Numbered from the stretch's first letter, positions 1 through 52,185 are shown. The stretch is 64,000 nucleotides of DNA from Schmidtea polychroa (GCA_044892525.1 CM097885.1:28584001-28648000), one strand, 5' to 3'. The notes: a model not told the origin generated them from the sequence alone. Program-made: numbers and translations.

Positions 1-313
1 TAATCTTGCCTTTGACTACTTTAAGTATAATATCGAGTAAATCATCGACAACATAATTTGGAAAAGATTGCAAAATACTGTTTCTTTTCATACTTGGTGC
101 CTTTAACAATGTATTGAAAAACGGGAAACTCCGATGATTTTTAACAACTTTTACTTTCTTAGTGGTTTTACTTTTAGGTTTAGGTTTAGGATTTTTCGAA
201 ATAAGATTCATTGCAGGAAAATTTTCTGTAATAAGTTCTTTAGATGGAGTATAACTAGTTGTTGGTGGAACTTTTGGTTGTTTTTTACTCGATATCCTTG
301 TTTTTGAAAACAT
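1..313 (-). CDS. Small basic Polinton-type protein (runs off window edge)
   Basis: ATG at 313, open to base 1: MFSKTRISSKKQPKV...FFNTLLKAPSMKRNSILQSFPNYVVDDLLDIILKVVKGKI. Resembles the conserved small protein found next to Polinton ATPases (from memory, not searched). Confidence 0.5.
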   Translation of the reverse strand, partial: MFSKTRISSKKQPKVPPTTSYTPSKELITENFPAMNLISKNPKPKPKSKTTKKVKVVKNHRSFPFFNTLLKAPSMKRNSILQSFPNYVVDDLLDIILKVVKGKI

Positions 314-326
314 TATTTATGTGTTT

Positions 327-957
327 TCAAATTTGTTTTGAACTTTGTTTATAAACCATGGCACCTTTTGGGTTGAAAATATCTGTTTTTACCCGTATAT
401 CATCAGGACATTGTTGTGTGAAATCGAGAAATATATACCCATGAGGTACTTTCGTAGCATCTTGAAATGGATTGATAAGAAAATTACGGTTATTACGGTC
501 GTCCAAGAAAATCAATGACAGTTGCATCTCTAGGATTCTTGAAAATAACTAGATATTGTACATTTAAATTACGTGTTCGATGTGCCCCACCTTGATGAAA
601 TAGATTTTGTGTTATGAAAATAACTGTTACACCAACATGTTTGCTGATTGTTGTGAATAAATTATTAAAATCCTTTTATTTATTGGCTTCTTGATACAAA
701 TCATCGATAATGATGACATCATCTTTCTTCAAACGACTTGACCAGTTTTTATCAAAACCCTTTACTATTTTCATGTTTTTCAATTGACAGAAACTTGATT
801 GTGTCAATCCATGTTCTTCATCGGCGCCCCTATGCCAATAAATATTGTTGAATTTTGTTTTGAACAAATTAGATTTTAGTAATTTACAAACAAATAATGT
901 TTTTCCACTACCACTCGGACCAACGATTTGGTATACTGCATCATTTCGTAATTCCAT
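327..957 (-). pseudogene. Polinton DNA-packaging ATPase (A32/FtsK-HerA family), disrupted
   Basis: Walker A GPSGSGKT and Walker B IIIDD. After a stop at 676 the frame continues ..SKHVGVTVIFITQNLF..RTRNLNVQYLVIFKNPRD; after a frameshift it ends PHGYIFLDFTQQCPDDIRVKTDIF. Confidence 0.88.
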
Positions 958-1294
958 TTTTTAAATTTAAACTATATAATTATTGTTTATATTGATAATT
1001 TAAATGAACTCCTTTTAAAATAACTATATATAACAGAGTTTTTATAATTATTTCATTAAAATGCTTTCAAATATAAATTACAGGGCAAAAGCTGATGTAT
1101 CAAAAATGATATTTCCAATGAGGAAACCACAACAACTCATCAATAGAAGTAAAAAATATCCAATAATATATTTCAAAACTGGTAAATGTAGAATTATGGG
1201 GTGTAAGGAAATAATCAAAGCTAGTGAATATAATGTTTATGATTTAGAAATACAATCGATAACCGTAACTTCCGATATAGGTTTTTCTTGTAAT

Positions 1295-2398
1295 TGTTGG
1301 ATGACAGAGGAAGAAGAATCGAAGAGTTTGAATTAACACATTACTATAGAACGGGCAGCAACAAGTTCAGAATCAATATATACGTGGAGCCCAGATAACT
1401 CAAGCCGGACAAATCAAAACAATTATCATTACAATTTGACTACTGACTTATGTACATTAGTGATTTATCGGACTATTATTTTATGACAATTATTATTTAC
1501 GGTGTTTTATATTATTTTATCAATGTATCTTATTTATTTTATGGAGTTATATGTATTTTATGTTGATATTTCATATAAATAAAACATAGTATGGGGATTA
1601 ATTAAATAATTAATATCAGTATAATTACAAAATACATAATATTGAAAATAATAAGTGGACATTTTAAATAATTGAAAAACATATGTTGAAAATAATGAAA
1701 ATAATAAGTGGACATTTTAAATTGAAAAACATATGTTGAAAATAATGAAAATAATAAGTGGACATTTTAAATAATTGAAAAACATATGTTAGGAGCATGA
1801 GTGGTTCTCGAGTCGTGGGAACATAATTTTAACAATAATTAACAGCAATAATAATAATTTTAGCAATAATAATAATTTTAATTTTTATCACAAATTTTTA
1901 GCAATCATAAATAATTTTAATATTTTAACAATAATCAATTTTGTAGCAGTTATTTAACACTTTAAGAAGCATGTATATAAAAATATATTAATTTCTTAAT
2001 TATATTTCTTAAGTACACTTGAAAATTATAACAATTTAATTTCATATACGAAAAAAGTATAAATAGCGAGTCAAAATTCATTTTTTTCGCCCCAAAATTT
2101 TAACCGCGTTAACATACTAAAAAGGTTAATCCTTATTAGTGCTAAAACTCGAACAGACAAACAGAAACGTTCAAAAGCCTACACGCAACACAGCAAGAGA
2201 ATACATAACATTCACACAATACACACAAGCATATTCGATTGGATATTTAAAGGATTTTTGGATTTTTGTAGCAAAAAAATTCATATTGGTAAATTTTTAT
2301 TTATAATAAAAGTTTTATAACTCACTTCGTCTTTTGATATATTTGTACATATATAAGAACCAGTAAGTTGAGTGTTCCCGAATATCGAGACCTCAACA
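1295..2398 (+). repeat. 5' LTR (1104 bp)
   Basis: Direct repeat of 9136-10270. Contains three ~50-bp tandem units (~1644-1790), TATAAATA at ~2058 and AATAAA at ~2305. Confidence 0.95.
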
Positions 2399-2400
2399 TT

Positions 2401-2418
2401 TGGTGCCGCGAACCGGGA
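2401..2418 (+). promoter_or_regulatory. Primer-binding site (tRNA-Phe- or His-like)
   Basis: TGGTGCCGCGAACCGGGA, 2 nt after the LTR end, complementary to a tRNA 3' CCA end. Confidence 0.8.
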
Positions 2419-2638
2419 CTTTAAAATTAATTATTGTTATTCACAATTTGGGGGATAGGAATTGAGATCAGAGGGTATAGTATTTTATATTGGGAAAATA
2501 TATTTATAAAAATAATATCATTGATCAATTTTTTAAATAAATAAATTCAGTTTTGAAAATTATTAAATAATTCAAAAAGATAAAATAGATAATCAACCCG
2601 AAATAGTTTATAATCTCAGAAATAGAATAGTCTATAGG

Positions 2639-3634
2639 ATGAATAATAATAATAATAATTACATAAAAATTTTACCAGTAGAACCATATAGAGGAGAGCC
2701 CGAAAAGTTCGACGATTTTTTCACTGAGATCGCTCAGTATGCAGAAGCTTGTGGTTGGACACCTGATGAATTAAAAATGAGAATCCCATTATACTTAAAA
2801 GGCTATGCGTTACAGGCATACAATAACTTAGAATGTAAAGGGAATAATTTTGATCAACTCGTAAGATATCTGAGAGCAGAAATAGTAATCGATAGCGATT
2901 TACAAAAGATAAATGTTCAAAAATTTAGAAACAGATATCAAGGTACTAGAGAATCAGTTGGTGAATATGTATATACGATTACGGAGTTAGCGAAAAAGGC
3001 ATTTGGTGCAGGCGAGCACACAGCAAAATTAATTGAGGATCAGTTTTGGAATGGTATACAAAAATATTTATATAAAGCATTAATTATGGTAGAATATGGT
3101 AATTTAAATGAATTAGTTCATAAAGCTAAACGCATAGAAGCAATACAACGAGATAGATTTAGCTCACATGTAGATGCAATGGAAATTCAAAAACCCATCG
3201 AGGTAAAATCTGAGTTGGGTAAGTCAGATGACAACATTCCCTGGGAGGAGATGAAGCAACTATATTTAAACTTTGTAAAAAATAGACGAAGGGTAAGCCC
3301 GAGTCCGGATAGAAGTCAATCGCCTGAAAACAGGAGGAGGTTTGATAATGTGAGAAACAGAAACTTTGAGAATAGAAACAATAGAAACACTTTTGATAGA
3401 GATAATCGATACGAATACAATAGAAATAATTATACGAGAGATAATCGAGTCGATTTTAGTAGAAATAATTTGAGAAATAATAAATATGATAGAAGTAATA
3501 GATATGATAATAGAGATAATACAAATGATTTGAGACGTAGACAGACAAGTCCATATAGACAGAATTCATATAGAGAAAGGCGAGGAAGCCCTTATAATAA
3601 TGATGGTAGAGATAAAGTAAATTTTAATGGATAG
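2639..3634 (+). CDS. gag: Gag (capsid-like domain plus R/N/S-rich tail)
   Basis: Retrotransposon gag motifs (PYRGEPEKFDDFF, YLKGYALQAY, RYQGTRESVGEYV, QFWNGI). Ends at TAG with the frame staying open downstream. Confidence 0.9.
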   Translation: MNNNNNNYIKILPVEPYRGEPEKFDDFFTEIAQYAEACGWTPDELKMRIPLYLKGYALQAYNNLECKGNNFDQLVRYLRAEIVIDSDLQKINVQKFRNRYQGTRESVGEYVYTITELAKKAFGAGEHTAKLIEDQFWNGIQKYLYKALIMVEYGNLNELVHKAKRIEAIQRDRFSSHVDAMEIQKPIEVKSELGKSDDNIPWEEMKQLYLNFVKNRRRVSPSPDRSQSPENRRRFDNVRNRNFENRNNRNTFDRDNRYEYNRNNYTRDNRVDFSRNNLRNNKYDRSNRYDNRDNTNDLRRRQTSPYRQNSYRERRGSPYNNDGRDKVNFNG

Positions 3635-6600
3635 ATCAAATGTTATAATTGCCAAAAATATGGTCACTTAGCTAAAGTATGTAATAATGCGCGAAGCGAA
3701 TCGCCTAATAGAGTGAGATTTAAAAATGAGCCTGAGATAAAACAAATTAATAGTGCTGAGTTGATATCAGCTAATGAGGAAATAAACAGTTTGAGAGAGG
3801 AATTAAAAGAATTTAAAACTCAATATGGGAGACTTATTGAGAGAAAGTTAGAAATGTCATTAAATGAGTTTCAGTGTTTTACTAATGATGTAGATATAGA
3901 TAATGATGAGTTTCGCGAAGCAAGAGAAGCGGATGAGAAATTTCTTGCAGAAGCAAATAGATGTAAAGAATTAAAAGAGGAATTGAAAGAGACATTAGAG
4001 AAATGGCCTTATGATGACAATAAGACATTGCGTATAATAAATAGAGTTCAAGTCGAAGGAATTGACTTAGAATATTTGAGAAATTTGATACCACTAATGG
4101 TAAAGAGGCAAAATATGACAAGAGTATTTGAATTAGAAATAGAATTGAAAGAAATGATAAAGTGTTATGGTGAATTTGTGAGAAAAAATCAGAAATTACA
4201 TGAGTCATTGAATATAACTATTGAGGCAAAGGACCTTTCGAGAATACTTATGCGTAGTACAGGGGTACATGTTTGCACAAAAGTGAATAAAGTGAAACAG
4301 ATGGCCAGAGCAAATTGGCCCGAGAAATTGGGAGATAATGATAAAGTGAAACTGTATTTTAACGGCGTAGAAATGATGAATAATGAATATATAATTGACT
4401 ATGGAGTAAACGTCATTGATAACAATATTATTTCTGCAGTAATAGAAAGGCAAGAAAGTAAAGAAATTGATACACCAACTCCATCAGTAGAATTGAGTAT
4501 AAACGACGAAAATGACTATGATAAATTATTTAGATTGTGGGATGCTTCTTCAGGAGGGGCAATGAGGTCACCAACAGCTAGCGAGGAAATCTTTAAACCT
4601 ATTGATACTAAATATGATAATTTACATGAGACAATAGAAAAAATTGCGAAACAAGCAAATATGCAGGATGCAGAGACAATGAGACGAGGTAGAGGAAGGC
4701 CTCGAAAATCGGAAATAGCCGAAAAGTCAGATGACAGAAAGGCAGCAGAGCGTCTAAGAAATATTGCAAATAATATGAGACAGGAAGCCCCAAAAAATCA
4801 GGATAATGACAAAGATATAAAGATGATAACGGAGTTAGCTAAAGCAATGAATAGGAGACGATTTCCGGAAGCAAAACCATCAGCGTTAATAGAAAATATA
4901 GTTAAAAAGATTAAATTAATGGAAAAAGAGATTAGAGAATTGAGTGCAGAGGAAGCAAATGAAGAGACAGTGTTAAAGATATTATTTACAACAGGAGTTA
5001 ATCGAGATAAAGTAATTACGGCAATGGCATATTTAATAACAAGATATAAGAAACTTTTGCGATTGAATCCAAAGAATCAAATAGAAAATATCGCTAAAAT
5101 GATATATAATAAATTAAAGATAGATGCTATGCCATGGATAAAATTAAAGGGAGGATGGAAAATACTGTATGATGAGAGTCTAATCGAAAGTGCTCAGGAA
5201 AGCGTAGAAGATAATATTAATGTAGAAATAGATGATACGGAGGATTTTAGCGGTAAACAATTAATAGTAGTACCACAAAGATTAAGACAAATTCTTCTGT
5301 TACAATATCACGATGGTGCTTTAGGAGGTCATTTATCAAGTAGGAAAACAGCAAGCAGATTGATGCAAAAATATTATTGGGACGATTTGAAAAAGGATGT
5401 CAAGAGATGGTGTAATGCATGCACAATATGCGCAACTAGAAAAAATACAGGAACAAAAACTAAAGCACCTTTACATCCAATCCCAGCTACAACATCACCA
5501 ATGGAACTGTGCGCAATGGATTTTTTGTGTAAACTACCCACAACAATTAATGGGAATAAGCACATACTAGTTTTTAGCGATTATTTTACAAAATGGGCAG
5601 AGGCATTTCCTACAAAAGATGAAACAGCAGAAACAGTAGCTAAATTACTTGTGGAAAAAATAATCTTTAAAATCGGTACACCGAGAAAATTATTAACAGA
5701 TAAAGGGAAAAATTTCACAAGTGAAACTATAAAAAGAGTAGCTAACATATTTAACATGCATAAAATCAACACAACATCATACCACCCTCAGACCGATGGT
5801 TTAGTAGAGAGATTCAATGGGACATTGCTAAGTAGATTAGCTGTGTTTGTGGGAAAAAACCAAAATGATTGGGATGAATACGTTAATCAATGCACATACA
5901 TCCATAATATCACACCAAATGAGACAACGGGATATTCACCATATTTTCTAATGTTCTTAAGAGAGCCTGCGACACCGATTGATACAATTTTTGAGCCTCG
6001 AGTATCACAATATTTAGATGCGCCAGATTATGTAACATTAATGCAAGAGAGATTACAAGAGGTATATAAGGTTGCAAATTTAAAAGTTAAATTCAGACAA
6101 GAACAATATAAGGCAGATTACGATAAAAATAGCAAACCTCATAATTTTAAAGTGGGAGATAAGGTTAGACTTATGTCTCCACAAGTAGGAAAAGGCAAAA
6201 CAACTAAATTAGCAAGACCATTTAAAGGACCATACGAAGTAGTAAAAGTAGTACATGAAAACTTGCATTTACAAAAACATAAAAATGAGGATCCGATAAT
6301 AGTACATGTTAATAGATGCAAACTAGCAGAAACAGAGTTAATAGAAAAACCACCTCACAAATATGGATTACGATCACAAAAAGCACTGGTGATGGCAGCG
6401 ATCTTTTTAACAATTATAGGGCTATGTAAATCAACTGAAGTAGAAAATGAGAGCATACACTCAGTAAAATACATGGAGGAAGATATTTTAATCAACATTT
6501 CACCGTATAAAATTAAAGTATATAACTTGAATAAATCACCTATAAGGGACTTATATCTAGAAACTGGGGATGATATACCCAAGCTTATGAAAAAAATTGA

Positions 6601-7213
6601 GAATAGATCAACTAATGAATTTGAAAGGGGAGACAATGTTGAATTCATAAATCTACAGCCTAACATTAATTACACACTTTGTGCACAATGGAATACCTTA
6701 GTTGACACATCACAAGTAAGGTGCAAAAGAATAAGTACCACTATTACAAACATATATAAGCCCATAGATAATAACATGCCAACAACCACCATAACAATAA
6801 CTACCACAAATTCGGCATCCACCCAACAGTCATTACAAACGATAACAAACACAGATAGAGAAACGACATTTAAAGTAACTAGACAAATATACAAAAAATT
6901 AATAATAAAAAATCTAAGACAGTTTGATAGGAAACTGGTAAAATTACCTACGGGAAAACCCATAATCATAAATAACTGGGATGAACTAAGAGCATTTCAA
7001 GTAAAACCTGCTAAACCACGATGGCCTTTCTATGTAATTTCATCAAGCATTTTAGCATTGAGTATTTTAGCTATTATCACCAGTGTTCAAGTGTATAAAA
7101 AATACAAATGGAAAAGGCAGCGGTATCGGCACCGACTGGTCAAAAATGTACCAGGGCATTTTCATTTGGATAAGTATAGGCCAGGACAATACACAATGTC
7201 CTCATTGGTTTAA
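3635..7213 (+). CDS. In-frame continuation of gag: CCHC knuckle, coiled coil, ubiquitin-like, AT-hook, integrase, hydrophobic segment, FN3-like, Thr-rich stalk, TM
   Basis: CYNCQKYGHLAKVC right after the TAG; KLYFNG..I.DYGV (Ubl, ~4208-4445); RRGRGRPRK (~4682); HHCC zinc finger, D..D-35-E core and GPY motif (~5260-6240); NLQPNINYTLCA; WPFYVISSSILALSILAIITSVQVY followed by a basic tail. Confidence 0.85.
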   Translation: MKCYNCQKYGHLAKVCNNARSESPNRVRFKNEPEIKQINSAELISANEEINSLREELKEFKTQYGRLIERKLEMSLNEFQCFTNDVDIDNDEFREAREADEKFLAEANRCKELKEELKETLEKWPYDDNKTLRIINRVQVEGIDLEYLRNLIPLMVKRQNMTRVFELEIELKEMIKCYGEFVRKNQKLHESLNITIEAKDLSRILMRSTGVHVCTKVNKVKQMARANWPEKLGDNDKVKLYFNGVEMMNNEYIIDYGVNVIDNNIISAVIERQESKEIDTPTPSVELSINDENDYDKLFRLWDASSGGAMRSPTASEEIFKPIDTKYDNLHETIEKIAKQANMQDAETMRRGRGRPRKSEIAEKSDDRKAAERLRNIANNMRQEAPKNQDNDKDIKMITELAKAMNRRRFPEAKPSALIENIVKKIKLMEKEIRELSAEEANEETVLKILFTTGVNRDKVITAMAYLITRYKKLLRLNPKNQIENIAKMIYNKLKIDAMPWIKLKGGWKILYDESLIESAQESVEDNINVEIDDTEDFSGKQLIVVPQRLRQILLLQYHDGALGGHLSSRKTASRLMQKYYWDDLKKDVKRWCNACTICATRKNTGTKTKAPLHPIPATTSPMELCAMDFLCKLPTTINGNKHILVFSDYFTKWAEAFPTKDETAETVAKLLVEKIIFKIGTPRKLLTDKGKNFTSETIKRVANIFNMHKINTTSYHPQTDGLVERFNGTLLSRLAVFVGKNQNDWDEYVNQCTYIHNITPNETTGYSPYFLMFLREPATPIDTIFEPRVSQYLDAPDYVTLMQERLQEVYKVANLKVKFRQEQYKADYDKNSKPHNFKVGDKVRLMSPQVGKGKTTKLARPFKGPYEVVKVVHENLHLQKHKNEDPIIVHVNRCKLAETELIEKPPHKYGLRSQKALVMAAIFLTIIGLCKSTEVENESIHSVKYMEEDILINISPYKIKVYNLNKSPIRDLYLETGDDIPKLMKKIENRSTNEFERGDNVEFINLQPNINYTLCAQWNTLVDTSQVRCKRISTTITNIYKPIDNNMPTTTITITTTNSASTQQSLQTITNTDRETTFKVTRQIYKKLIIKNLRQFDRKLVKLPTGKPIIINNWDELRAFQVKPAKPRWPFYVISSSILALSILAIITSVQVYKKYKWKRQRYRHRLVKNVPGHFHLDKYRPGQYTMSSLV

Positions 7214-7358
7214 AAATAATATAGATAATTTCAATTCCTATTGGTCAATGATAATATTTAAACTCACATATATTTATATTTTTATTTATATTGAAGCGTA
7301 TAAGGTAAAGCCTCAAATGCGCTGTAAATATGTATGTTTATATTGTTTTTTTAGAAAA

Positions 7359-9239
7359 ATGCAATCCAACAATACCAGAGTCAATCCCAAACCATTCAAT
7401 CCCATACAACGTCCAGTCCAACAATACAGCTGCTCCATTCAAAAACTATACCACAGTTTCTACAAAAATTTGCAAAATAAAATCACCTCAGACGGCTCAC
7501 CAATCACCATCAGAAGTTTCCCTAACCAGGTCTGCATACCCAATGAAATGAAGTGCGAAATCGAAGAAAGAGAAATGCACTTAGTTAAATTTAATGAAGC
7601 CCGAAGGATAAAGCTGAGAGATATAATAGGCACCTATGATATGTTCAAAAATGCAGATATCGCAGCAAATGAAGGAAGAAAAGTCCCACATAGAATACTA
7701 TTCCATATGACCAGAACGGAGGTCTCAATTTGCCAACAACGAATCCCTATTATAACAACAAGCAACTGCACGGTGGTGATCAAGACGATGAAGACAAATC
7801 GAAGCGTGCCAAACGATTTCAACAATTTGGTCATCCAAATGAACAATTTACCCTGTGTGATGGCTATCGAAATTCTATATGTCCCAACCATACCCAACCC
7901 TTTCAGAGAATTAGAGATGATACAGTCGGAAATCGTGATACATCAGGATTTCATCTCGAAACGGATGTCATTCACACATCAACAGTTGTCAATCCCCGAA
8001 CGACAAAGGGCAATCATGTTCGTCGATGTCAAAGAAGTATGCGACATCAATAACAATCTCAGACCAGTAGAGATATGCATCAGAAATTTTAGAGGAGAAA
8101 TCGTATACAATAAAAAGGTGACTCCACGCACCAAAATCCAACATTATTACCCGGAGAAGACAAGAGCAGACAGAGATTCGATAAGAGGAAACGAAGACGA
8201 ATACCAAGCGCTGATCGACATACAGAAGCTGCTACTCGGAAAAATCATTGTGGGATACGAAATAATAAAGAAACTCAAGACGCTGACATTAGATCTGTAC
8301 AATGTCATTGGAGTCAGAGAGTTAGCTGAAGATGTGTTCATGTGTTCATTCGTCAAAAATGTAGCACCACACAGAATCAAACTATCGAATCTCGCATACA
8401 AGGTAATCGCAACACACCCAAAATGGAAGAAAGACAAAGCAATCAACAACATCCTCAAAAAACCCGAACCGTTCTCAGCAGAAGATACAACACTAATCGC
8501 AAAAGTCATTTACCTCTTGGTCGAAAAGCAATGGGAAGAAGTCATAAGGTGGGACATGACAGCATTCCAAAAGGAAAATAATGGCCATCAACTCAGTCCA
8601 ATAGAAGAAAACAGCGATGAGCCAGAAGAATTTGAGGAAGATATATATATCGAACCTTCACAAAGAGAATTGAAATTCAATAAAGATGGGAGCAGACGTA
8701 CCTTTGAAGATGAACTAATGGACAGCGATGATGACATCATATTCGTCAAAGAGGACAAAAAACCACAAGCAATCACAATAAAGGAAGAACCTCAAACATC
8801 AAGAAGTTACAACTATGCTGACCCACAATGTGATTTAGACTCGGATGAAGAATATTTCTCACCTGGCGAAGCAATGCAGATAGATGACGAACTAGGACCA
8901 GAGCCAAATGTCGAGTTGGAGGAGCCAATGTTCATCATCAAAGAGGGAAGATCCACTATCTCGGAAAAAGAAATACATCAACACTTCGGCAGACGAATTA
9001 TTGATGGTGACGTGTTAAAATTGGCATTGAAGAAAGGATTCCAAAGAGCAACAATGTATATAAACGGTTGTGAAATCGAATTGGTCCTTAGCGATAAAGG
9101 TAATGAGGACATTACTTTATCGGCCCTAGGAGGAGTGTTGGATGACAGAGGAAGAAGAATCGAAGAGTTTGAATTAACACATTACTATAGAACGGGCAGC
9201 AACAAGTTCAGAATCAATATATACGTGGAGCCCAGATAA
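7359..9239 (+). CDS. ORF3 (~626 aa from ATG 7359) with degenerate DEDDh (ISG20/REXO4-like) exonuclease fold
   Basis: FVDVKEV..EICIRNFRGEIVYNKKVTP..IQKLLLGKIIVGY..KLSNLA..SAEDTTLIAKVIY parallels the REXO4/ISG20 motif order. Start codon chosen by the adjacent splice acceptor; the open frame begins at 7083. Confidence 0.7.
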   Translation: MQSNNTRVNPKPFNPIQRPVQQYSCSIQKLYHSFYKNLQNKITSDGSPITIRSFPNQVCIPNEMKCEIEEREMHLVKFNEARRIKLRDIIGTYDMFKNADIAANEGRKVPHRILFHMTRTEVSICQQRIPIITTSNCTVVIKTMKTNRSVPNDFNNLVIQMNNLPCVMAIEILYVPTIPNPFRELEMIQSEIVIHQDFISKRMSFTHQQLSIPERQRAIMFVDVKEVCDINNNLRPVEICIRNFRGEIVYNKKVTPRTKIQHYYPEKTRADRDSIRGNEDEYQALIDIQKLLLGKIIVGYEIIKKLKTLTLDLYNVIGVRELAEDVFMCSFVKNVAPHRIKLSNLAYKVIATHPKWKKDKAINNILKKPEPFSAEDTTLIAKVIYLLVEKQWEEVIRWDMTAFQKENNGHQLSPIEENSDEPEEFEEDIYIEPSQRELKFNKDGSRRTFEDELMDSDDDIIFVKEDKKPQAITIKEEPQTSRSYNYADPQCDLDSDEEYFSPGEAMQIDDELGPEPNVELEEPMFIIKEGRSTISEKEIHQHFGRRIIDGDVLKLALKKGFQRATMYINGCEIELVLSDKGNEDITLSALGGVLDDRGRRIEEFELTHYYRTGSNKFRINIYVEPR

Positions 9240-10270
9240 CTCAAGCCGGACAAATCAAAACAATTATCATTACAATTTGACTACTGACTTATGTACATTA
9301 GTGATTTATCGGACTATTATTTTATGACAATTATTATTTACGGTGTTTTATATTATTTTATCAATGTATCTTATTTATTTTATGGAGTTATATGTATTTT
9401 ATGTTGATATTTCATATAAATAAAACATAGTATGGGGATTAATTAAATAATTAATATCAGTATAATTACAAAATACATAATATTGAAAATAATAAGTGGA
9501 CATTTTAAATAATTGAAAAACATATGTTGAAAATAATGAAAATAATAAGTGGACATTTTAAATTGAAAAACATATGTTGAAAATAATGAAAATAATAAGT
9601 GGACATTTTAAATAATTGAAAAACATATGTTAGGAGCATGAGTGGTTCTCGAGTCGTGGGAACATAATTTTAACAATAATTAACAGCAATAATATTAATT
9701 TTAGCAATAATAATAATTTTAATAATAATTAATAGCAATAATAATAATTTTAATTTTTATCACAAATTTTTAGCAATCATAAATAATTTTAATATTTTAA
9801 CAATAATCAATTTTGTAGCAGTTATTTAACACTTTAAGAAGCATGTATATAAAAATATATTAATTTCTTAATTATATTTCTTAAGTACACTTGAAAATTA
9901 TAACAATTTAATTTCATATACGAAAAAAGTATAAATAGCGAGTCAAAATTCATTTTTTTCGCCCCAAAATTTTAACCGCGTTAACATACTAAAAAGGTTA
10001 ATCCTTATTAGTGCTAAAACTCGAACAGACAAACAGAAACGTTCAAAAGCCTACACGCAACACAGCAAGAGAATACATAACATTCACACAATACACACAA
10101 GCATATTCGATTGGATATTTAAAGGATTTTTGGATTTTTGTAGCAAAAAAATTCATATTGGTAAATTTTTATTTATAATAAAAGTTTTATAACTCACTTC
10201 GTCTTTTGATATATTTGTACATATATAAGAACCAGTAAGTTGAGTGTTCCCGAATATCGAGACCTCAACA
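9136..10270 (+). repeat. 3' LTR (1135 bp)
   Basis: Copy of 1295-2398; by eye it differs only by an extra 31-bp AAT-rich unit (~9721-9751) and one substitution nearby. Confidence 0.95.
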
Positions 10271-10625
10271 TAATTTAAATAAATTGGCTAAATTAATACC
10301 ATGCTTTTACGAACCAGAATTATTTCCAGCTTTGAGATATATAAAATATAACCCTATGTGTGTAAATATATTCGCTAGCGGTAAGATAGTAATTCTTGGA
10401 ATAAAAAATATTGATTACAAGTGTATAGTTGATAATATCATATCTGAAATTAAATCAATAATTGAAGGAAATGAATTTTTAGATTTTTTTTTATTATCAC
10501 TTAATTAATTATTTATCATTGCAAATTCAATGCAATTGAAATGCATGATTCTGATTGGACGAAATCTAATTGGCTGATGATTATTTATAACAAAAAGTTT
10601 TCGGTTTAGTTGTCATTTTTAAACC

Positions 10626-11033
10626 ATGTACAACATACAAAGTTCCGCAATCACCTCAATGAAAGAGCATGCAAATTATGGTAATTTCAAATTTTTATTA
10701 TTACATTAATATATATTTTTTACAGATGAATATCAATCAATTATCCTGCAAAGATTATGCTTCTATTATCCAGAATTAAATGAAATTCTACAAGATAGAG
10801 ATCCAGCTATCATTCCGGATTTGGTATACAACCAAACACGAATCTGGATATTCGATATAATAAACACCTTTCTATGGGATATCAAGATAGGAAGGGTGAT
10901 GAAAGAAATGAAAGCAGAGGCTCCTTGCATTTTCGGATGTAGCTGTTGCAATTTCCGTTATCAACAATATGTTGAATGGTGTTTGGTGAAGACTCAGAGA
11001 AATCATCACTCGAGTCAGATAGTATCAAAATAA
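10626..11033 (+). CDS. Two-exon hypothetical Polinton gene (exons 10626-10680, 10726-11033)
   Basis: 45-nt GT..AG intron joins ATG 10626 in frame to the 10821-11033 ORF; Cys cluster CIFGCSCC near the C-terminus. Confidence 0.55.
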
Positions 11034-11286
11034 ATTTTTATGTTGAATTGTTTTGTTTTTGTAAATCGAAATAATAGAAATAGAAATAATAGTAATAGAA
11101 ATAGTAATAATATAAGTAATAATAGTAATAATAATAAAAAACATTAATGCAACATTAATGCAAATGACATGCAATTTAAACAAAGACATGCAATTTAAAC
11201 AAAGTCATACAGCAATCTGATTGGTTGATAAACAATAGTCATAGGTATAAAAACCCTGTACCATTTCATTTTAATCATAATTCACG

Positions 11287-11706
11287 ATGACAAAGAAAAT
11301 TTCAAGCAGTGAAAAGCCAAAAGTTGTTCCAGAACTTGTACAACCTGTTCAAATGTTCCACAACTATAAAATGTATTTTTTAAAAGAAGAAATCAATATG
11401 AAATTGGCGTCACCGATCAAGCTAATTCCAACTAAATTTCAATTCTTATCCGGCACGCTTTCAATGATAGATGTTAAATCTATTGATGAGGTTTTCAAAC
11501 GGTTGAATACGAATCTATCTTGTAATCAACATGCCTGGTTCAACAACAGATATGCAAGATTTTATGATTCCTTTGATGAAATCGCTTTCAAAGAAAACGA
11601 AAATTGGTATATAACAATTGCAATCCAAGGATATAAAGTTGATAATAATGATGTATATTCTCCTATTTGGAAAATTATGTCTGCTAGACTTTCAGAACTA
11701 TTTTAA
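11287..11706 (+). CDS. Hypothetical 139-aa Polinton protein
   Basis: Intact ORF with upstream TATAAAA (~11246). A diverged second copy of its promoter and 5' half lies at ~51826-52097. Confidence 0.65.
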   Translation: MTKKISSSEKPKVVPELVQPVQMFHNYKMYFLKEEINMKLASPIKLIPTKFQFLSGTLSMIDVKSIDEVFKRLNTNLSCNQHAWFNNRYARFYDSFDEIAFKENENWYITIAIQGYKVDNNDVYSPIWKIMSARLSELF

Positions 11707-11833
11707 TGTTATATTTAATAAATGTATTAGTCATATTTGTTTTTTCTCTTTATTAATTGCAACATTAATGCAAATGACATGCAAATTTAACAAAGAAAAT
11801 CTATAAACAAACTTATAATATAGTTTTAAAGTG

Positions 11834-12081
11834 ATGAAAATGACTTCAGAAAAAGGTTAACATGATTAATTAAATACCGAATTATTTATTATTTAGAATT
11901 ATTAATCAACTTTTTGTTGGAAAAATTAGCAGAAATATCTGGTGTAAAAATTGAGGATATATTATCTGTTACAAATGCATTAAATATCGGCTGGGTAGTT
12001 GAGAGTCAAGATTCAGGATTTGACGATCAGGAAGAAACTCAAGAAATTGATGACGTATTGATCGTGTCGTTGAAAATATAA
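11834..12081 (+). CDS. Putative small two-exon acidic protein (exons 11834-11855, 11897-12081)
   Basis: 41-nt GT..AG intron gives MKMTSEKELLINFLLEKLAEISG...ESQDSGFDDQEETQEIDD. Confidence 0.35.
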
Positions 12082-12169
12082 TGAAATGTGGAGATGACGA
12101 TTGCGAATGTGTTAATAAATTTTAAAATTGAATTATTTTCATTTAAATATACTATTAAAAACAATAACA

Positions 12170-12698
12170 TTAATTTTTATTCATATATCTACAGAAAATA
12201 TACATTATAACAACTCCAGTTGTAAGTTTTATATAGTTTTTCATTTTTCTTTTGATTTCATCAGTTTCTTTAAAATTGCAGGCCAGTTTATTTAATACAC
12301 CCCATCCGCCATTGGCTTCTATCCATGGGGTAAACTTGGACTTGATTATCTAGAAATGAATATTATTAAAATATAAATTATAAAAGAAATCTTACTTCTA
12401 AAGACCACTGATAATAATGTTCTGAGTCATGTTGACCTTTTACAATGATTATCTTCATGTAGGTGAATCCTACAATTATCCTTGTCCATTTCATGTCTTC
12501 ATCGAAAAGACACTGAAATATTCTATTGAAGTAATACTTCTTGGTTTCCAGGGATTCCGTCTCCATCATCTGCTGATAATCGATATGTTCACCTTCAATG
12601 ATTTGTTCAGTTCGATTGATCAGGAAATTGAGGCTGTCGACTATATTCGCGGTGACAATTCCGTTTAGAACATTTTCCATAAAATTTGGTTGCGACAT
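12170..12698 (-). CDS. Bcl-2 family-like protein, two exons (12698-12396, 12349-12170), ~160 aa
   Basis: BH1-like LFDEDMKWTRIIVGFTY; GTAAG..TTCTAG intron 12395-12350; BH2-like PWIEANGGW; C-terminal hydrophobic tail YIKLTTGVVIMYIFCRY. Confidence 0.8.
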
Positions 12699-12908
12699 TT
12701 CTAAAATAATTTAAAATATAATGTTTCATTTATACTAATACCATATGATTTTGATTGGTTGATAGACTATAAATGTAAAAGAAATGTTTTGATTTGATAC
12801 ACCATAAAAACTATATTACTAATTATTATAACGAGTGTGTGCTAACACAATACCTTAATTTCATAATATTCGACTATGTTTTTGTTCACCATGATTTGTG
12901 ATAGAAAT

Positions 12909-12911
<3 letters not shown>

Positions 12912-12970
<59 letters not shown>

Positions 12971-12977
12971 CATAATC

Positions 12978-13035
<58 letters not shown>
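12912..13035. repeat. (AAT)n microsatellite
   Basis: Directly visible. Confidence 0.95.
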
Positions 13036-13037
<2 letters not shown>

Positions 13038-13329
13038 TTAGAAAATATGTGTTTTATTACATTGTTTAATAATATCATTGTACCCTTGCGAGTTGTTGAG
13101 CGTGACCAGTACCCTTGTGAGCAGTACCCATAAGGGGACAGAATATTTTGTCGGATAGACTCGGAGTATATAGATTAATAATAATATATCAATAGCTATC
13201 GATGAGAACACTAACTTGTTGCATGTGTGGACACTAATAATATTTTTTATACCTTGTGTGTGTGACAGAATATCTTGTCTGATAGACTATATTGTGTGTA
13301 ATAATAATTTTGTCAACTTTTTCGTCAAA

Positions 13330-13619
13330 ATAAGTTTTTAAAATACCGCAACGTAATATATTTAATAATTAAAATATAATAAATTTTAAAATACCGCAAC
13401 GTAATATAAATTAAAAAAAAACCGCAGCGTAATATATTTTAAAAAAAGTACCCCCCCTCCCCGGGGGGGTGGGGGATATGACGCCATATGTCTTTGTGAC
13501 GTCATCGATGACGTCATATGTCTTTGTTCCCGGGTCCACACAATACCCTACTATAATTGAAATTTGTATTGCCGCAACCCCTCTTCGGCTGGAGGGGGTC
13601 ATTGTTGCAGAGGACTACT
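13330..13619. repeat. Probable Polinton terminal-inverted-repeat region
   Basis: Three ACCGCA(A/G)CGTAATATA repeats, C/G tracts, a 20-bp palindrome and terminal ACTACT. The partner TIR is not in the window. Confidence 0.6.
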
Positions 13620-14784
13620 AATTACCTACTTTTATATTTACTATGATTAATTTTATTTGTTGGGTTATTGGGTTGGTGACAATATTTGTAATGTCAAACC
13701 TTTATTCTGACTCCAAAGCGTGTTTTGATAATTCACAACTTAACAATCTCGATCACGATAAGCTTTATCATTATTCACACTAGATCGTACAAATTCCAAT
13801 TACAACCAATTAACTCTAAACCAAATAATCACACAGAGCGTATTGCGACACTACGTGAAGAACAGCCCTTTCTTTTGTTTAGGTCTCGTTATACGAAAAC
13901 CCCAACCTTACTGGTTTTTATATATATAAACAAATAGAACTAGTTGTTTAAATTATTTATTTATAATCAAAAATTACCAAGAAAAATGTAACAATTTTTT
14001 CCAATTTCAAATCAAATATAAAATAATGATAGTATGTGCTTCTATGCTTCCTCTTAATACCAAATTTAAATTATTATATTTCCTATCTGTGTTCAAGTAT
14101 GGTTAATTGATATTAAAAATGTGTTAATTACCATTGTTATGTTGCAATATACTGCTTAGATTTTCAAATATCTCACCTCAAAATATTTTTCTTGTCAGCC
14201 GACGGGTGACAAGAAACATTTTAAAGGCAGCTCATCGGCCTATTGGCCGATTCGCTTTTCTAACATTTATATTTAGTTTCAAGTGAGGAAAAATGTATTT
14301 AATGTGCAGGACCCCCTGCGGAATACCCGACACCCAGCAAAACCACTCTACTGCCTGGCTTTTCATCAAACACTATCACTTAAAAACAAGGCCTGTTGGA
14401 GCTCCTAAAACAGTACCTATGGTCCAACACTCATAATAATTAGAAGGCACCCAACATGAAAAAACCAATACCCCATTCCAATTAAAGACCATGAAACGCC
14501 AAAACCAATCAACCAATACAATCTAACTAACGAAGCCCATCTCAAACAATCCCATCAAATATTTCTTCACTTTTTATGAAACACTCAATCTATGGAAGCC
14601 CAACCCAATCACCCAAACCAATCCAACCAATCCAACCGGAAAGCCAATGTACCTTATCTTGTGTACCTTATCATGTGTCACCTATCTTTTTTCGTTGTGT
14701 TGCCTTATTTGTATATATCTTATAGTAATTTTTAGTAACTCCACCACCGCACTGGTTTACAACCTTTCTACCAACCAATACCTT

Positions 14785-20849: not shown

Positions 20850-21245
20850 TTATAGTTCTATTGTTCGAATATATAGAAATTCATATTTGAATAATAGATC
20901 AACTGTCCGCTTAAAGTCAATCATTTCTGAACATTCAACTGATTTGAATTTATTAAACTTCATTTGATCAAGATTTAATTTCCATACGATTACATAATCA
21001 CATAAATCCACACTTTCAAGGAATGAGTTAGTTTCGTTGATTAATTTCGTTATTGATTCTGAATGTCCATATAATATATCACTCTGTTTGCCATCTTCTA
21101 AACTCCATACAATTATAATATCATCCATTCTACCAGTGAATGCAACTCTCGATTTATTGTCACAAACTTCTGACAAAACAACATTTGAATGACCACTCAA
21201 AACAAATTCATCATATTCATTATCCTTAGCATTTTTAAAATCCAT
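20850..21245 (-). CDS. Intronless short WD40-repeat-like ORF
   Basis: Two GH...W repeats: LSGHSNVV..FTGRMDDIIIVWSL and LYGHSESI..DYVIVWKL. Confidence 0.6.
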   Translation of the reverse strand: MDFKNAKDNEYDEFVLSGHSNVVLSEVCDNKSRVAFTGRMDDIIIVWSLEDGKQSDILYGHSESITKLINETNSFLESVDLCDYVIVWKLNLDQMKFNKFKSVECSEMIDFKRTVDLLFKYEFLYIRTIEL

Positions 21246-32522: not shown

Positions 32523-35500
32523 TCAGATAGCTTGTGACATCGATGTGAATCCGTAATCCTGAAAGGTAATAACGCAATAATAATGATAATAATAATAATA
32601 GCAGTAATAATAATAATAATAACATCTGCTCCACATAGCTAGCAAATAAATACACAAAATATTGATATAAATCTCGATTGTTACAGTTATGTGCTGTGGA
32701 TAAATTACTACATTATTTATCTTAAATATGTTTGTTTAGAGCCTAAATTGAAAATTTGCCAAAGCTGCAAAGTAAAGAGATTTTTTCGATACCTTGATAT
32801 AAAGTACAACATTTATTTTATCGTAAATGATAATAATTTGACGTTACTGTTGGGGTTAGCACAAAAACCGAAAATTCATATATAAAACGAAAACATAATA
32901 AAAAAGGGTAAAATCAATAAAAGTGCAAAATTAATTAAAATTTACTAATAATCAAAAATCAATATTGAACGGGGTATGGTTGAACGCCAAATTGATAGAC
33001 GAGTTCAGAAATTATAATGAAAAGTTAATAAGGTGTTCAGAGGGAAAGTTAATTTGAAAAAAAATAAATTAATTAATGATGATTTTTTATAATTTTTCAT
33101 ATAATTTTTCAGATATTTCATATAATTTTTCATATAATTTGTCAAATATTTTTCATATAATTTTTCATATAAATTTTCAGATATTTTTTCATATAATTTT
33201 TCATATAATTTTTCATATAATTTTGCAGATAATTTTTCAAATAAGTTCTCAGATAATTTTTCATGATAACTTAAATTTTGAAGCATAGTAGAATTGTTTT
33301 AACTAAAAATTAATTAAAATTTACTAAAAATCAAAAATAAATATTGAACGGGTTATCAGGTATAGTTGAATGCCAAATTGATGTACGAGTTCAGAAATTA
33401 TAATGCAAATTTAATAAAGTGTTCAGAGGGCAAGTTTATGCGAAAAAAAACAAATTAAATAATCTGAAATGGAAAGCCCGAGCCAATGAGAAGCCCGATG
33501 CGCGGTGAGACTCTAGCTACAAGATAAGAGGGAATATTTTGAGGAATATGGCTAATTCTATATATAAATGTCAATGGCTGTGTAAATAATTAATTACAAT
33601 TTCAGACTTTTAAACAATTTCCATAGAATGAAGGATAGTGGTGATTAGTTGGTTTTAAAGGTTTACAAAACTTTGCCGTTCTTAATATCAATGCCGTTCT
33701 CGCCACAGAAAGTTATTTATGCTTGCTACTCGGAGAAAACTATTGTACTAAAATCTAATTGATTTCATATTTTGATCGGTAAGATTGAACAAAGTAGCTC
33801 TTAAAATTATAATTATAACTGTTCTAGCACGTCTCTCTTTCACTTTTCAATCTACATTTCTTTTCGAAAACTATTTTTATTTTACTGCTGCGTCACTATG
33901 AGTTATGGCGCACTTTTTCCCATAATCCAGAACTATTCAATAATTTCTTAAAATATATCGATTTTTCAGATATTTTTCAGGTATTTTTTCAGATATTTTT
34001 CAAATAATTTTTTCAAATAATTTTTCAAATAATTTTTCATATAATTTTTCAAATAATTTTTCAGGTAATTTTTCAAATAATTTTTCAAATAATTTTTCAA
34101 ATAATTTTTCATATAATTTTTCAAATAATTTTTCAGGTAATTTTTCAAATAATTTTTCAAATAATTTTTCAAATAATTTTTCAAATAATTTTTCAAATAA
34201 TTTTTCAAATAATTTTTCAAATAATTTTTCAAATAATTTTTCAAATAATTTTTCAAATAATTTTTCAAATAATTTTTCAAATAATTTTTCAAATAATTTT
34301 TCAAATAATTTTTCAGATAATTTTTCAGAAAATTTTTCAAATAATTTATATTGTTGCCATAACTTACCAACTATCAAGCCATCCAGTTTTAAGTGCCATA
34401 TAAACTGTGGTCATAGCAATGAAATGAAAAGTTCTATATTAAATCAACGATCAACAAATAATACGGCAAAAAAAATCGATTTTCATACGATTTTTATAAG
34501 TCGTATGAATTGTGGCATCCCTATCAAATCCGATTTAAGCGGGCACGACTGTATATACAGCAGTGTTTCCCAACCTGTGTGCCGCGACAAATTATCAAAA
34601 TTGATAGGGTTTATCAACTGTGAATTTTTTTATAACTTATCAATTACTTCAAAATTGCGCTATATCAATTCTGGCAACGTATTGTGCTTTTTAATAACTG
34701 CTCGTATTTTTTGCAGTTGTTTCAAGTGGCGTTATATATGAATGCCTCTCTCATTTAAATTCGTTTCCAAGCTTAATATATATTCTGAAAATATTCCTTC
34801 TTCATAATTTCCTGGAAATATTTGGACAAATAATAGCAGTGGAAAATAATTATTGAATCGCAACAATAGGTGCAAACTTCTTAAAGTTTCTTTAAAATAA
34901 TGCAGTAAACACAGGCAGTGAGCACTGGGTAAATAATTCCACTGAAGGTATTCGATTGGTTGAAACAAATGTTAGAAATGCATATCAATAATACACCACA
35001 GATTAAAATATCGATATTAATAAATAAAAATGATAAAAACACCTATAAAATCACGATTTAATAGCATAAACTTTATTTTATAGATACTAATGATAAACAA
35101 TCATTAGAATAAGTTTTACCAATGATGCTAGATTGACATTTAGAAATTAACAGGAAATGTATAGTGAAAACTTACTGGGAATTGAGGACTGGCGTTAATA
35201 GAACCTCCTTGGTGAGATATAAACTGTGCAGAATTGGACGGTCCTCCTGGCATGGATTGCATATTCAGCGATGCATGATGTGAACCGATTCCTTGATGCA
35301 TCATATGGAGCTGTGAAATAGGCTGAACACCCATTGATACTGATGACTGACTAACTCTCATTGCATGCTCTGAAAATGAAGGACCGTTTGGAGGCATCGG
35401 GTTACAATAATCGGCGATATTATTTCCCATAGTTGCAATGACTTCCATATTTGGATTATGTAACTGGGGTGAATGCTTCATTGAGACTGGCGGCTCGAAA

Positions 35501-42646: not shown

Positions 42647-43870
42647 GGAATGCCTACCGAAATCATGCCAAGACATGCTCATACTGAACATCAGACGAAA
42701 TGATGGAAGAGGTTTAAAGAAGCCGAAGAATGGATCAGGGATATAGAAGAATGGTTGCTGACAAATGGACAGCGATTGACAAGTACTTTCGATGTGTTAT
42801 TAGTGGCAGAAGCAAAGACATTGTGGGGAAACGTCAGAGAAACAGAAAAAACAGATGTAAAAGCCAAAGCGTGGTTCTTAAATACGTTCACAATTACAAA
42901 ATCAATAACTGACAAAATCGGAGAATTGGCAGCTATGGAACAGGAAGATGATGAAAGGTTTGCAGCTTTTGAGATACGGCTAAGAAAAGCTTTAGCTGAA
43001 GTTGTAAATTCAGGACGATCAGAAGAAGATATTGTTCAAGACCTCATCGCATATAAAGCACGCGATGCGAGACTGAGGGAGATACTATTGACGAAACCAG
43101 AAACAAAAATTGAAGAAACGAGATCATTGGCGAAAATTTTTGAAAGTAACAAAAATGGAAACCATAAAACAGAATTTATTAAAGCAATCGGTCAAAGAAC
43201 ATACGCTAGCGTGACTGAGGGAGGGGAGATGAGAATTCAAAAGAATATCCAAGATCCCATGTCTACATCACCACAAAGAAGACTATCAGAAGATCCATTT
43301 AGTCACCACAAATCAAGAAGAGACGAACATCCTATACGCGGACCAATACAATACGAAGGAAATAATCATGGTCGTCGAGAACAATCTCCAAGAGAACAAT
43401 TCTTGAGAAATACGAGAATCCCGAATAGCTCAGAAAGGAAGCCGCCAACAATATCCATGAAGAATATTGCAAGGAGGCTGTACAACGAAAGTAGGGGACT
43501 ACCACAAGCATCGGTCTCAAAATTAACGGTAGGTGATTGTTTTTGCTGTGGCGAAAAGGGACATAGAAGGTTTGAGTGTCCACTGGGAAATAAATGCCTG
43601 ATATGTGGCAAGGAAGGACACGGGTTCCGAGATTGTTTTACGTTACGGAAAAATGTTCCACACCAATATCAAAGAATAGCGTGCATAGAAGAAGAAGATT
43701 CAAAATCTGAAAGAAGAGATTACGCCGAGAACAGCCAGGATTTCAGAATGGATCACAGCAATATGGAAGATAGATACAATGTCCCTGAGAAATATACTAT
43801 ATTGAGAGAAGACGGGAAAAAAATCAGCGACTCCATGGGTTTCATTTCGTCAGTGGAGTCAAGACAATAA
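42647..43870 (+). pseudogene. gag: Gypsy gag with two CCHC knuckles (5' end disrupted)
   Basis: CFCCGEKGHRRFEC and CLICGKEGHGFRDC. Confidence 0.85.
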
Positions 43871-43914
43871 ATTGAGAAATAAGAAATGAACGACGAAGAG
43901 ACGAGGCAGAAGAA

Positions 43915-46900: not shown

Positions 46901-47316
46901 GAAACTGGCACGAACTTCTACCCAGAATAGAGTTCACTATAAATAACAGTCGACAAAGTGCTACAGGTTTATCACCATTTGAGATAATTTATGGACGGAG
47001 TGTTAACCTACACTCTAACCTGAAACAAGCCGATATATCAAGAAGCGAAAGAATCGAAGACGCGAGATTTAACTCGAGTAAAGCCGCAGACATTGTGAGA
47101 GTTATGGATAAGACAAAGTGGGGCACTCGTGTTTTCGAGGTGGGGGAGGAGGTACTCGTACGTAAAGAGCCGCAGAACAGGCACAAGGATGGTATGCAAT
47201 ACGATGGCCCATATAAAATCGCCAGATTTCTATCACCTCATCGAGTCGAACTACATTCACAAGAAGGAACAAAAGAAAGAAGAATCGAGTGGCTGAAGAA
47301 GTGTAAAAAGTCTTAA
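43915..47316 (+). pseudogene. pol: Gypsy pol (PR-RT-RH-IN) with stops, frameshifts and an AT-rich insert
   Basis: LWDSGAS protease; SPWNAP, RMCVDYRGLN and YIDD RT; RKELLAV RNase H; integrase LTDRG..SNGLAER and GPY. Insert at ~44255-44605 and a (TA)n expansion at ~46096-46120. Confidence 0.93.
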
Positions 47317-51825: not shown

Positions 51826-52093
51826 CAACATTAATGCAATTTAAACTTTAATATGATTGGTTGTTCCATTTATTTTGAAGGTATAAAACTCTACCATTTT
51901 ATTTTAATCATAATTCACGATGGTCAAGAAAAGCACTGAAAAACCGAAAGATGAACTTGTTCAGCCTGCTCAAATGTTCCACAACTACAAAATGTATTTG
52001 TTAAAAGAACAAATCAATATGAAATTGGTTGCACCGGTCAAGATAATTCCAACTAAATTTCAATTCTTATCCGACACGCTTTCAATGGTAGAT

Positions 52094-52097
<4 letters not shown>
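51826..52097 (+). pseudogene. Fragment of the Polinton 139-aa gene with its promoter, truncated by (AAT)n
   Basis: ELVQPAQMFHNYKMYLLKEQINMKLVAPVKIIPTKFQFLSDTLSMVDV matches the 11287 ORF; upstream sequence also matches. Confidence 0.85.

Positions 52098-52185
<88 letters not shown>

Follow-up and report, generated by a model that had tools for sequence, protein, structure and literature searches.

The Polinton and its right arm

The window analysed here is a stretch of 64,000 nucleotides from Schmidtea polychroa (CM097885.1:28584001-28648000; G000:C1:28584001-28648000 in our numbering), and its first 13,552 nucleotides are the right part of a Polinton/Maverick, which we read together with its left neighbour stretches and five other copies. 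The right arm of this element encodes a TBP-like protein, and the virion genes of the element lie behind a box, TATAAACA, which that protein probably reads as the element's own late transcription factor. The copy begins 7,119 nt to the left of the window, at G000:C1:28576881, and its ends read AGTAGGG...CCCTACT, with AG...CT inverted repeats present in all six copies examined. The right terminal inverted repeat (TIR; 12954-13552) closes with ...CCCTACT, and its inner part is 98.8% identical to the left repeat over 407 nt. It is followed by the target-site duplication (TSD) ATAATT (13553-13558), and the identical hexamer precedes the left end. Matching 6-bp hexamers were read in four of six copies, the remaining two having damaged ends, and a 14-nt end motif followed by differing flanks occurs in 25 of 30 copies. 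An earlier note, made from the window alone, had taken ACTACT at 13619 as the terminus. We reject this placement, as the motif lies in flanking DNA (13553-13625 is single-copy in the genome, with one match) and the true end is at 13552, 67 nt leftward. The flank at 13559-13619, which ends in ACTACT and holds a short GC-rich hairpin-like stretch, may be the remnant end of another element.

The element is a genuine Polinton, as that note had proposed. Extension to the left, which it had suggested as a check, gave pPolB (PF03175, E 3.8e-29), an integrase, capsid-type genes, the left TIR and the 6-bp TSD in the same copy; a missing left TIR or missing core genes, or cargo consisting of single-copy host loci, either of which the note had named as contrary to its proposal, was not encountered. 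The integrase (rve, E 7e-7, 29.8 bits, just below cut-off, with an in-frame repeat insertion) is accompanied by a chromodomain, and about 640-706 nt left of the window (L033) its gene has an in-frame (ATT)n stretch with no counterpart in relatives that is probably an intron. The capsid candidate is a conserved 408-aa open reading frame (ORF) at the usual place, which had no match in Pfam or PDB sequence searches and gave a weak profile match (278 columns, E 0.003, probability 10%) to a double jelly-roll (DJR) domain protein of family G, another Polinton family of this genome. By its position and His/Cys motifs, a further gene is a candidate adenain-like cysteine protease. Within the window, the small basic gene X (1-313, minus strand) runs out of the left edge; it is an ORF with homologues in relatives (dN/dS 0.29), and we infer that it encodes a virion core protein. 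The A32/FtsK-like packaging ATPase noted earlier is present at 327-957 (minus strand), though broken in the window copy by an in-frame stop and a frameshift; it is unbroken in other copies. It has a Walker A motif, matches Pox_A32 with E 0.005 on a 94-aa broken piece, and its profile also retrieves the Pox_A32 protein of family G (E 3e-4).

To the right of the ATPase lie, in order, the TBP-like gene, u1, u2, u3 and the Bcl-2-like gene. The TBP-like gene is present, as noted earlier, in two parts on the plus strand: a 5' part (1061-1294) encoding the N-terminal lobe, with a TATATAA box at 1027, and a 3' part (10271-10508) encoding the C-terminal lobe with its EPELF stirrup, which matches Pfam TBP (PF00352) above the cut-off with E 7.1e-9. 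The 8,976-bp long terminal repeat (LTR) retroelement that splits the gene had gone unmentioned; in all five other copies the gene is continuous.

The three small genes that had been listed as unknown are all present, and one of them, u2 (11287-11706, plus strand, 139 aa, no intron), is predicted to be a single-strand DNA-binding protein (SSB) with an oligonucleotide/oligosaccharide-binding (OB) fold of the type found in T7 and nucleocytoplasmic large DNA viruses. Its structural model has a predicted local distance difference test score (pLDDT) of 90. Among 48,161 chains compared with it, the four closest matches were African swine fever virus (ASFV) CP312R, DUF2815, Enc34 SSB and T7 gp2.5, with Z 6.9-7.3 over 101-125 aligned residues and the next row at Z 6.0; we take CP312R and DUF2815 to be SSBs. 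On the model, u2 appears to share the OB fold in its gp2.5-type arrangement with the T7, Enc34 and ASFV proteins, from which it differs in its length of only 139 aa and in a sequence identity of 5-11%. Against BFVD it retrieved many uncharacterised giant-virus proteins with Foldseek E below 1e-3 (16 rows); an Atlas search returned no match. The gene is thus predicted to serve replication. It has ATTGG at 11220-11224, TATAAAA at 11246, AATAAA at 11717 and poly-A from about 11733, and two contigs of run X2, by guess an RNA run, have a poly-A loose end 16 nt past the AATAAA. Another loose end, a T-run near window position 172 with no AATAAA close by, was disregarded. A 146-nt piece at window 51953-52098, 40 kb downstream, is 91% identical to positions 11332-11477 of the SSB gene.

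The Bcl-2-like gene reported earlier (12170-12698, minus strand, 160 aa) has predicted coding exons at 12698-12396 and 12349-12170, separated by a 46-nt intron, and is preceded by TATAAAT at 12734 and CCAAT at 12758. The protein has BH1- and BH2-like motifs and a hydrophobic tail. Its first coding exon alone matches PF00452 below the cut-off (E 5e-4), while sister-subfamily copies pass it (32-34.5 bits against 31.4, profile positions 6-100) when read across one TAG at the predicted intron. By name, 17 of 27 weak PDB matches are Bcl-2-family chains (best E 0.08), and the first exon has only three close database relatives. The gene is genuine but lineage-restricted. A further 5' intron at about 12702-12742 was considered and dropped; we read this stretch as promoter, because it contains the TATA box and its upstream ATG is not conserved in subfamily B. 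Related arms carry other genes, namely an E2 ubiquitin-conjugating enzyme (L055:225-722), a dual-specificity phosphatase (L050:3975-4316) and, beside a truncated Bcl-2-like frame, a RING finger (zf-C3HC4_3; L160:8287-9062), so that the arm appears to consist of a conserved core of TBP-like and SSB genes with variable cargo.

The two remaining small genes are u1 (10626-11033, plus strand), with predicted exons at 10626-10680 and 10726-11033 around a 45-nt intron, about 120 aa and a Cys-rich end, and u3 (11834-12081, plus strand), with predicted exons at 11834-11855 and from 11897 around a 41-nt intron, an acidic middle and a Cys/His end. No usable Pfam match was found for u1, and its Atlas matches were all below 0.9. 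The idea that u1 and u3 are paralogues was dropped (profile comparison probability 1%). The tiny introns claimed earlier remain as three predicted GT-AG introns conserved across copies: that of u1 in 5/5 long copies of subfamily A and 5/5 of subfamily B, that of u3 in 29/29 A and 19/20 B-search loci, and that of the Bcl-2-like gene in 28/30 A and 20/20 B-search loci, one of the latter (L105) with an A-type intron. Predicted intron positions are also kept in further subfamilies. Among the joints listed for contigs of four of 12 public runs, three of them guessed to be RNA, no splice junction was seen, which is no evidence either way; the joints listed on a natural unbroken copy all come from run X3, and one X1 contig spans the u1 intron region unskipped.

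The order ATPase, TBP-like, u1, u2, u3, Bcl-2-like is kept in 5/5 further copies of subfamily A, in five of six copies of subfamily B (the sixth is truncated) and in subfamilies C and H, and dN/dS (NG86, subfamily A against B) is below 1; both had been put forward earlier as tests. The ratios are 0.24 for the TBP-like gene, 0.25 for u1, 0.16 for u2 and 0.13 and 0.39 for the two Bcl-2-like exons, and among the core genes 0.20 for the capsid candidate, 0.12 for the ATPase, 0.07 for the protease and 0.32 and 0.39 for the integrase. In subfamily A, u2 was locatable in 28 of 30 loci, always at full length (139 aa in 27 of them, 143 aa in the other); u3 exon 2 was likewise locatable in 28 of 30 and reaches its usual end in 26, and the first and second Bcl-2-like coding exons are open in 30/30 and 28/30. 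The family is abundant and for the most part intact: the TBP-like protein has 4,121 candidate sites in the genome, the best 150 scored all having unbroken frames (96-100% identity), and the Bcl-2-like region 1,708, the best 40 scored all being 99-100% identical; as the sites scored are the best-scoring ones, these figures overstate intactness. Nested insertion within the family also occurs, one copy lying inside another and flanked by the TSD GTTTAT (L046-L048, G000:C3:91751201-91781200). Along the element dS ranges from 0.19 to 1.7, a patchiness that suggests recombination between lineages.

The TBP-like protein and the box on virion genes

The model of the whole 154-aa TBP-like protein (pLDDT 95) has the TBP fold, superposing on human TBP 164-337 with Z 12.6 and a root-mean-square deviation of 2.5 over 142 aligned residues in both lobes. 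As a query it gave 98 database matches at 33-95% identity, one of them a cellular TBP, and many further 50% clusters. In an alignment of 66 homologues gathered via shared words, the TFIIB-contact glutamates E91 and E93 are present in 66/66, and the intercalating phenylalanines F38, F95 and F111 are invariant; the first intercalating position, placed by spacing from a conserved Pro, is variable, with F in 8/66. Several DNA-facing positions are fixed to other residues, N6, C107 and N109 in 66/66, S66 in 65/66 and T68 in 64/66. We take these to be the counterparts of human V169, V301, L303, N257 and V259, respectively, with numbering from the structure alignment. In the regions of helices H1 and H2 the N-terminal lobe has lost about 10 and 13 residues, with a spacing of 27-32 in 63 of the 66 rows against 42, and the model has no helix of four or more residues before residue 79.

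The host genome has at least six separate TBP-family loci (L172-L177), three of them very divergent (33-40% to canonical TBP). In a 43-row tree, the root of which serves for drawing only, 11 Polinton-linked rows are split from six host TBP-family loci by a branch with support of 100/99, which argues that the TBP-like gene is not a recent capture from this host. The gene represents an old Polinton-linked lineage under purifying selection. Among 56 outside TBP-like loci, 55 metagenomic and one a viral contig (which groups with cellular TBPs), a Polinton core gene is present in 24 and a homologue of u2 in 17; for the loci of at least 3 kb, 14 of 21 have a core gene and 18 of 21 a core gene or u2 homologue. 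In relatives the gene lies beside the ATPase, or between protease and polymerase.

On reading upstream regions, TATAAACA was seen before the ATPase, X and capsid genes. We counted it in 11 of 16 virion-module segments (44 kb) of TBP-carrying elements, five near-relatives being left out. The coding strand has 51 occurrences and the opposite strand none, against 4.4 expected by a Markov model and 3.7 by codon permutation (maximum 10 in 200); the box is the top-ranked 8-mer and is present in every one of the 11 segments. The occurrences lie between genes (15) or in either of two reading frames (16 and 20), and the constraint therefore acts on DNA. An ATG-opened frame begins 25-55 nt downstream, mostly at 33-42, of 32 of the 51 boxes, against a background of 21%. 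The exact box TATAAAC[AG] precedes 16 of 19 ATPase genes and ATAAAC 18 of 19, and u3 is preceded by TATAAACA in 5/5 subfamilies examined. In the window the box stands at 346-353 (minus strand), 40 nt before the start of X and within the 3' end of the ATPase gene; at 984-991 (minus strand), in non-coding sequence 34 nt before the ATPase start; and at 11802-11809 (plus strand), 32 nt before the u3 start.

Two controls show no comparable enrichment. In 26 kb of polymerase genes TATAAACA occurs four times against 2.0 expected. In family G, in two copies of which a profile search found no TBP-like frame, it occurs three times on each strand in 15 kb of one copy, with no strand bias, and not at all within 80 nt before the 11 genes. 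A scan of viral_contigs with ATPase and capsid queries gave no further TBP-less control. Family G (G000:C4:86020708-86035845, L153-L155) is itself very young, with 2,192 candidates whose best 40 matches are all 100% identical; it has a DJR capsid and a PLA2-like domain fused to its integrase, and its genes start after AAA instead of the box.

The TBP-like, u2 and Bcl-2-like genes have TATATAA, TATAAAA and TATAAAT instead of TATAAACA, and the last two also have ATTGG or CCAAT. The earlier description of this arm as resembling the early region of a DNA virus is fair in so far as these three genes have such ordinary TATA-like boxes; u3, within the same arm, is itself behind the late-type box. Before the SSB and u3 promoters (window 11140-11200 and 11760-11800) there are also an octamer-like motif, ATGCAAAT, with four occurrences in the arm and found in 8 of 11 arms counted, and AACAAAG; these resemble POU and Sox sites and may provide cell-type control.

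A proposed early-to-late switch and the fate of the copies

We consider it probable that these features amount to an early-to-late switch, in which the TBP-like protein is the element's own late transcription factor, reading TATAAACA and recruiting host TFIIB and Pol II. In such a scheme, host Pol II would first transcribe the TBP-like, SSB and Bcl-2-like genes from the ordinary TATA-type promoters observed before them, presumably early, and the protein-primed polymerase and the predicted SSB would copy the linear genome. The TBP-like protein would then bind TATAAACA, placed about 33-45 nt before the ATPase, core, capsid-module and u3 starts, and its conserved EPE stirrup would recruit host TFIIB and Pol II. 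Such a factor would be expected to prefer TATAAACA over TATAAAAG. Loss of helix H2 may free it from the host regulators that, to judge from known TBP interfaces, act on the N-terminal lobe of TBP, and the Bcl-2-like protein, a lineage-restricted gain assigned by family, may block apoptosis and keep the host cell alive. The 'late' status of the boxed genes is taken from gene type.

A host factor, be it a forkhead protein, the host TBP or one of its paralogues, would provide a different and rather unlikely explanation: it would read the box, and the TBP-like protein would act otherwise, for example by repressing or tuning the early promoters. ATAAACA fits the forkhead consensus. The C(-25) TATA variant of PDB entry 1qn3 is presumably TATAAAC, and by the title of that entry wild-type TBP was crystallised on it; together with the six host TBP-family loci, this means that a host protein could read the box. 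Against such a reader, the strand bias of 51:0 and the fixed start-codon distance better fit a core promoter than an orientation-free upstream site, the box is maintained in relatives across many unrelated metagenome records, and the DNA-facing residues of the TBP-like protein are fixed as non-canonical.

The points just made in favour of a host reader also weigh against the switch, and they are not the only ones to do so. The link between box and TBP-like gene depends on family G as the sole TBP-less control, and as this Polinton family of the host genome is a distant one, box and gene could be linked through common descent instead of function. No ATG-opened frame lies at 25-55 nt from 19 of the 51 boxes, and the exact box is missing before 3 of the 19 ATPase genes. 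Gathering homologues via shared words inflates the apparent invariance of the TBP-like protein, and more distant representatives vary at EPE. The Z-scores of u2 are in the middling range for the structure-comparison tool. The dN/dS values come from a single subfamily contrast in which dS is near saturation for the TBP-like, u1 and Bcl-2-like genes, and the ratio for u3, 0.35, is not significant (P 0.14). No match to the Bcl-2-like gene, u1 or u3 was found in the 56 outside loci.

The earlier note had read the arm as a host-manipulation cassette. On this view the target of the TBP-like protein would be the genes of the host, whose transcription it might, for instance, dampen by acting as a TFIIB decoy, alongside anti-apoptosis by the Bcl-2-like protein. 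We regard this as improbable. Invariant TFIIB glutamates together with loss of the N-lobe regulatory surface would suit a decoy, and the variable host-type cargo of related arms (E2, dual-specificity phosphatase, RING finger) also speaks for this reading. Yet the three intercalating phenylalanines and the first asparagine are kept, so that DNA binding looks retained, and the virion genes of the element have a private box that is absent in the TBP-less family. Because it is paired with that box, the TBP-like gene more likely serves transcription of the element; and as one of the supposedly unknown genes is a predicted SSB, a replication gene, the label of host manipulation holds for the Bcl-2-like gene only.

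Whether these elements are viruses is a separate question. Spread may be purely intragenomic, with no extracellular virus and with the capsid-module genes serving intracellular movement or being recent relics, a reading compatible with the switch that we hold as a serious though lesser possibility; thousands of candidate sites (4,121 with the TBP-like query), nested insertions and many broken copies would all agree with it. Purifying selection on the capsid-type gene, protease and ATPase argues against it, as do the dedicated promoter class of the virion genes and the patchy dS, a sign that lineages have probably recombined. The conservation of virion genes and their separate class of promoter raise the probability of a true viral life cycle, which the earlier note had suggested.

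The window copy itself is dead. A deletion of about 3.3 kb has removed the 3' end of the capsid gene, the protease and the 5' part of the polymerase, and to the stop and frameshift in the ATPase and the split of the TBP-like gene is added a frameshift in u3, caused by a deletion near 12055. The element splitting the TBP-like gene is a Burro-like gypsy LTR retroelement (1295-10270, plus strand, TSD TAAT), which makes up 66% of the interval 1-13619. Its LTRs (1295-2398 and 9136-10270) differ by one mismatch and one 31-nt indel, and it is therefore very young. In full copies of this family a single ORF of about 3,050 aa encodes gag, a Bcl-2-like domain (Pfam Bcl-2, E 2e-5), a fusion-type env (Monjiviricetes fusion, E 2e-87), protease, reverse transcriptase, RNase H and integrase (RVP, RVT_1, RNase H and rve in Pfam). 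The window retroelement has gag, the Bcl-2-like domain, the integrase and an extra 722-aa ORF, about 4.5 kb (env-like, protease, reverse transcriptase, RNase H) having been deleted in frame relative to full copies. The extra ORF of about 700 aa follows the integrase (window 7071-9239, plus strand; L148:2348-4447); it has no Pfam match in the window copy and a chance-level one only in the full copy, and part of it resembles a degenerate DEDD exonuclease. The Bcl-2-like protein inside gag-pol (window 4856-5260, plus strand) has about 150 scored sites in the genome. Two unrelated mobile elements at one locus thus each have a Bcl-2-like protein; kinship between the two was considered and set aside, BLASTP giving no alignment. 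Elsewhere in the window we presume, from its motifs, a second, degenerate gypsy-type gag-pol with stops (42704-47316, plus strand), and a Pro/Gln/Met-rich frame (35140-35988, minus strand) and a WD40-like frame (20850-21245, minus strand), named by reading only, are probable host exons.

Relation to known elements and viral systems

Polintons, Bcl-2 cargo, viral TBPs and Burro elements are all kinds already known. The nested retroelement family resembles the Burro elements of planarians, for which the same domain order is described in passages of PMC6431247, in having env in frame between gag and pol and a Bcl-2-like motif; it differs in its length of about 13.5 kb (the 8,976 nt of the window copy together with the roughly 4.5 kb it has lost) against more than 30 kb, and in its further ORF of about 700 aa without a Pfam match.

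The Polinton shares with other Polintons/Mavericks and with adintoviruses, as far as passages of PMC8502044 describe them, a TIR-bounded length of about 15-17 kb, pPolB, a retrovirus-like integrase, a packaging ATPase, and capsid-type and protease-type genes. The accessory genes reported there for adintoviruses include homologues of Bcl2 and IAP (Starrett et al. 2021, PMC8502044). In that paper 'TBP' appears once in the main text, where a figure legend uses it to label MELD viruses, and the supplement text searched does not contain it; passages of the paper mention no promoter box or late factor. Inspection by eye of the u1 and u3 alignments showed none of the LxCxE motifs beside paired CxxC by which the adintovirus 'Oncoid' genes are defined. 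Our literature search, which was mostly at abstract level and had subscription papers and Repbase reports outside its scope, found no Polinton TBP paired with a late-type box. The present analysis contributes a control family without TBP, a test by codon permutation, a correction of the terminus and the recognition of the nested insertion.

It is an evenly balanced matter, in our judgement, whether the switch extends to a widespread animal Polinton lineage with two-stage transcription, in which a TBP of about 150 aa, its regulatory helix trimmed and its DNA-reading surface re-tuned, would read TATAAACA and enlist TFIIB and Pol II of the host to turn on the virion genes. The question of whether the Polintons of animals still act as viruses is an old one, and a separate virion promoter class with a candidate reader makes it testable; if the switch is real, the box and its reader would directly mark cells where virions are produced from endogenous Polintons. 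As a natural TBP that has altered DNA-facing residues and lacks H2, the protein also offers a compact probe for the study of TATA specificity.

The TBP-like proteins of large dsDNA viruses share with the Polinton protein a two-lobed fold (by Foldseek matches) and loss of the N-lobe regulatory signature; passages of PMC7221094 describe viral TBP N-lobes as being without the surface used by BTAF1/Mot1. In these viral TBPs the two C-lobe glutamates that contact TFIIB are mostly lost and a viral TFIIB is present instead (PMC7221094, in passages), whereas both glutamates are invariant in the Polinton alignment and the arm ORFs scanned gave no TFIIB Pfam match. A functional likeness would be with the TBP mimics of beta- and gamma-herpesviruses (ORF24, BcRF1, UL87), which, according to passages of PMC6541308, serve late promoters with a TATT box and bind Pol II directly in a six-protein complex. 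Both have a TBP-like protein, no RNA polymerase of their own and a modified late TATA box, the herpesvirus one about 30 bp before the start site. The Polinton protein differs in consisting of nothing but a 154-aa saddle, in which the TFIIB stirrup is retained; it has no separate Pol II-binding domain and is paired with the box TATAAACA. By analogy, the Polinton system would work like the herpesvirus TBP mimics and is not a member of that system; if this is true, the two late-gene systems would be parallels of independent origin, and the Polinton one would use the smallest kind of viral initiation factor.

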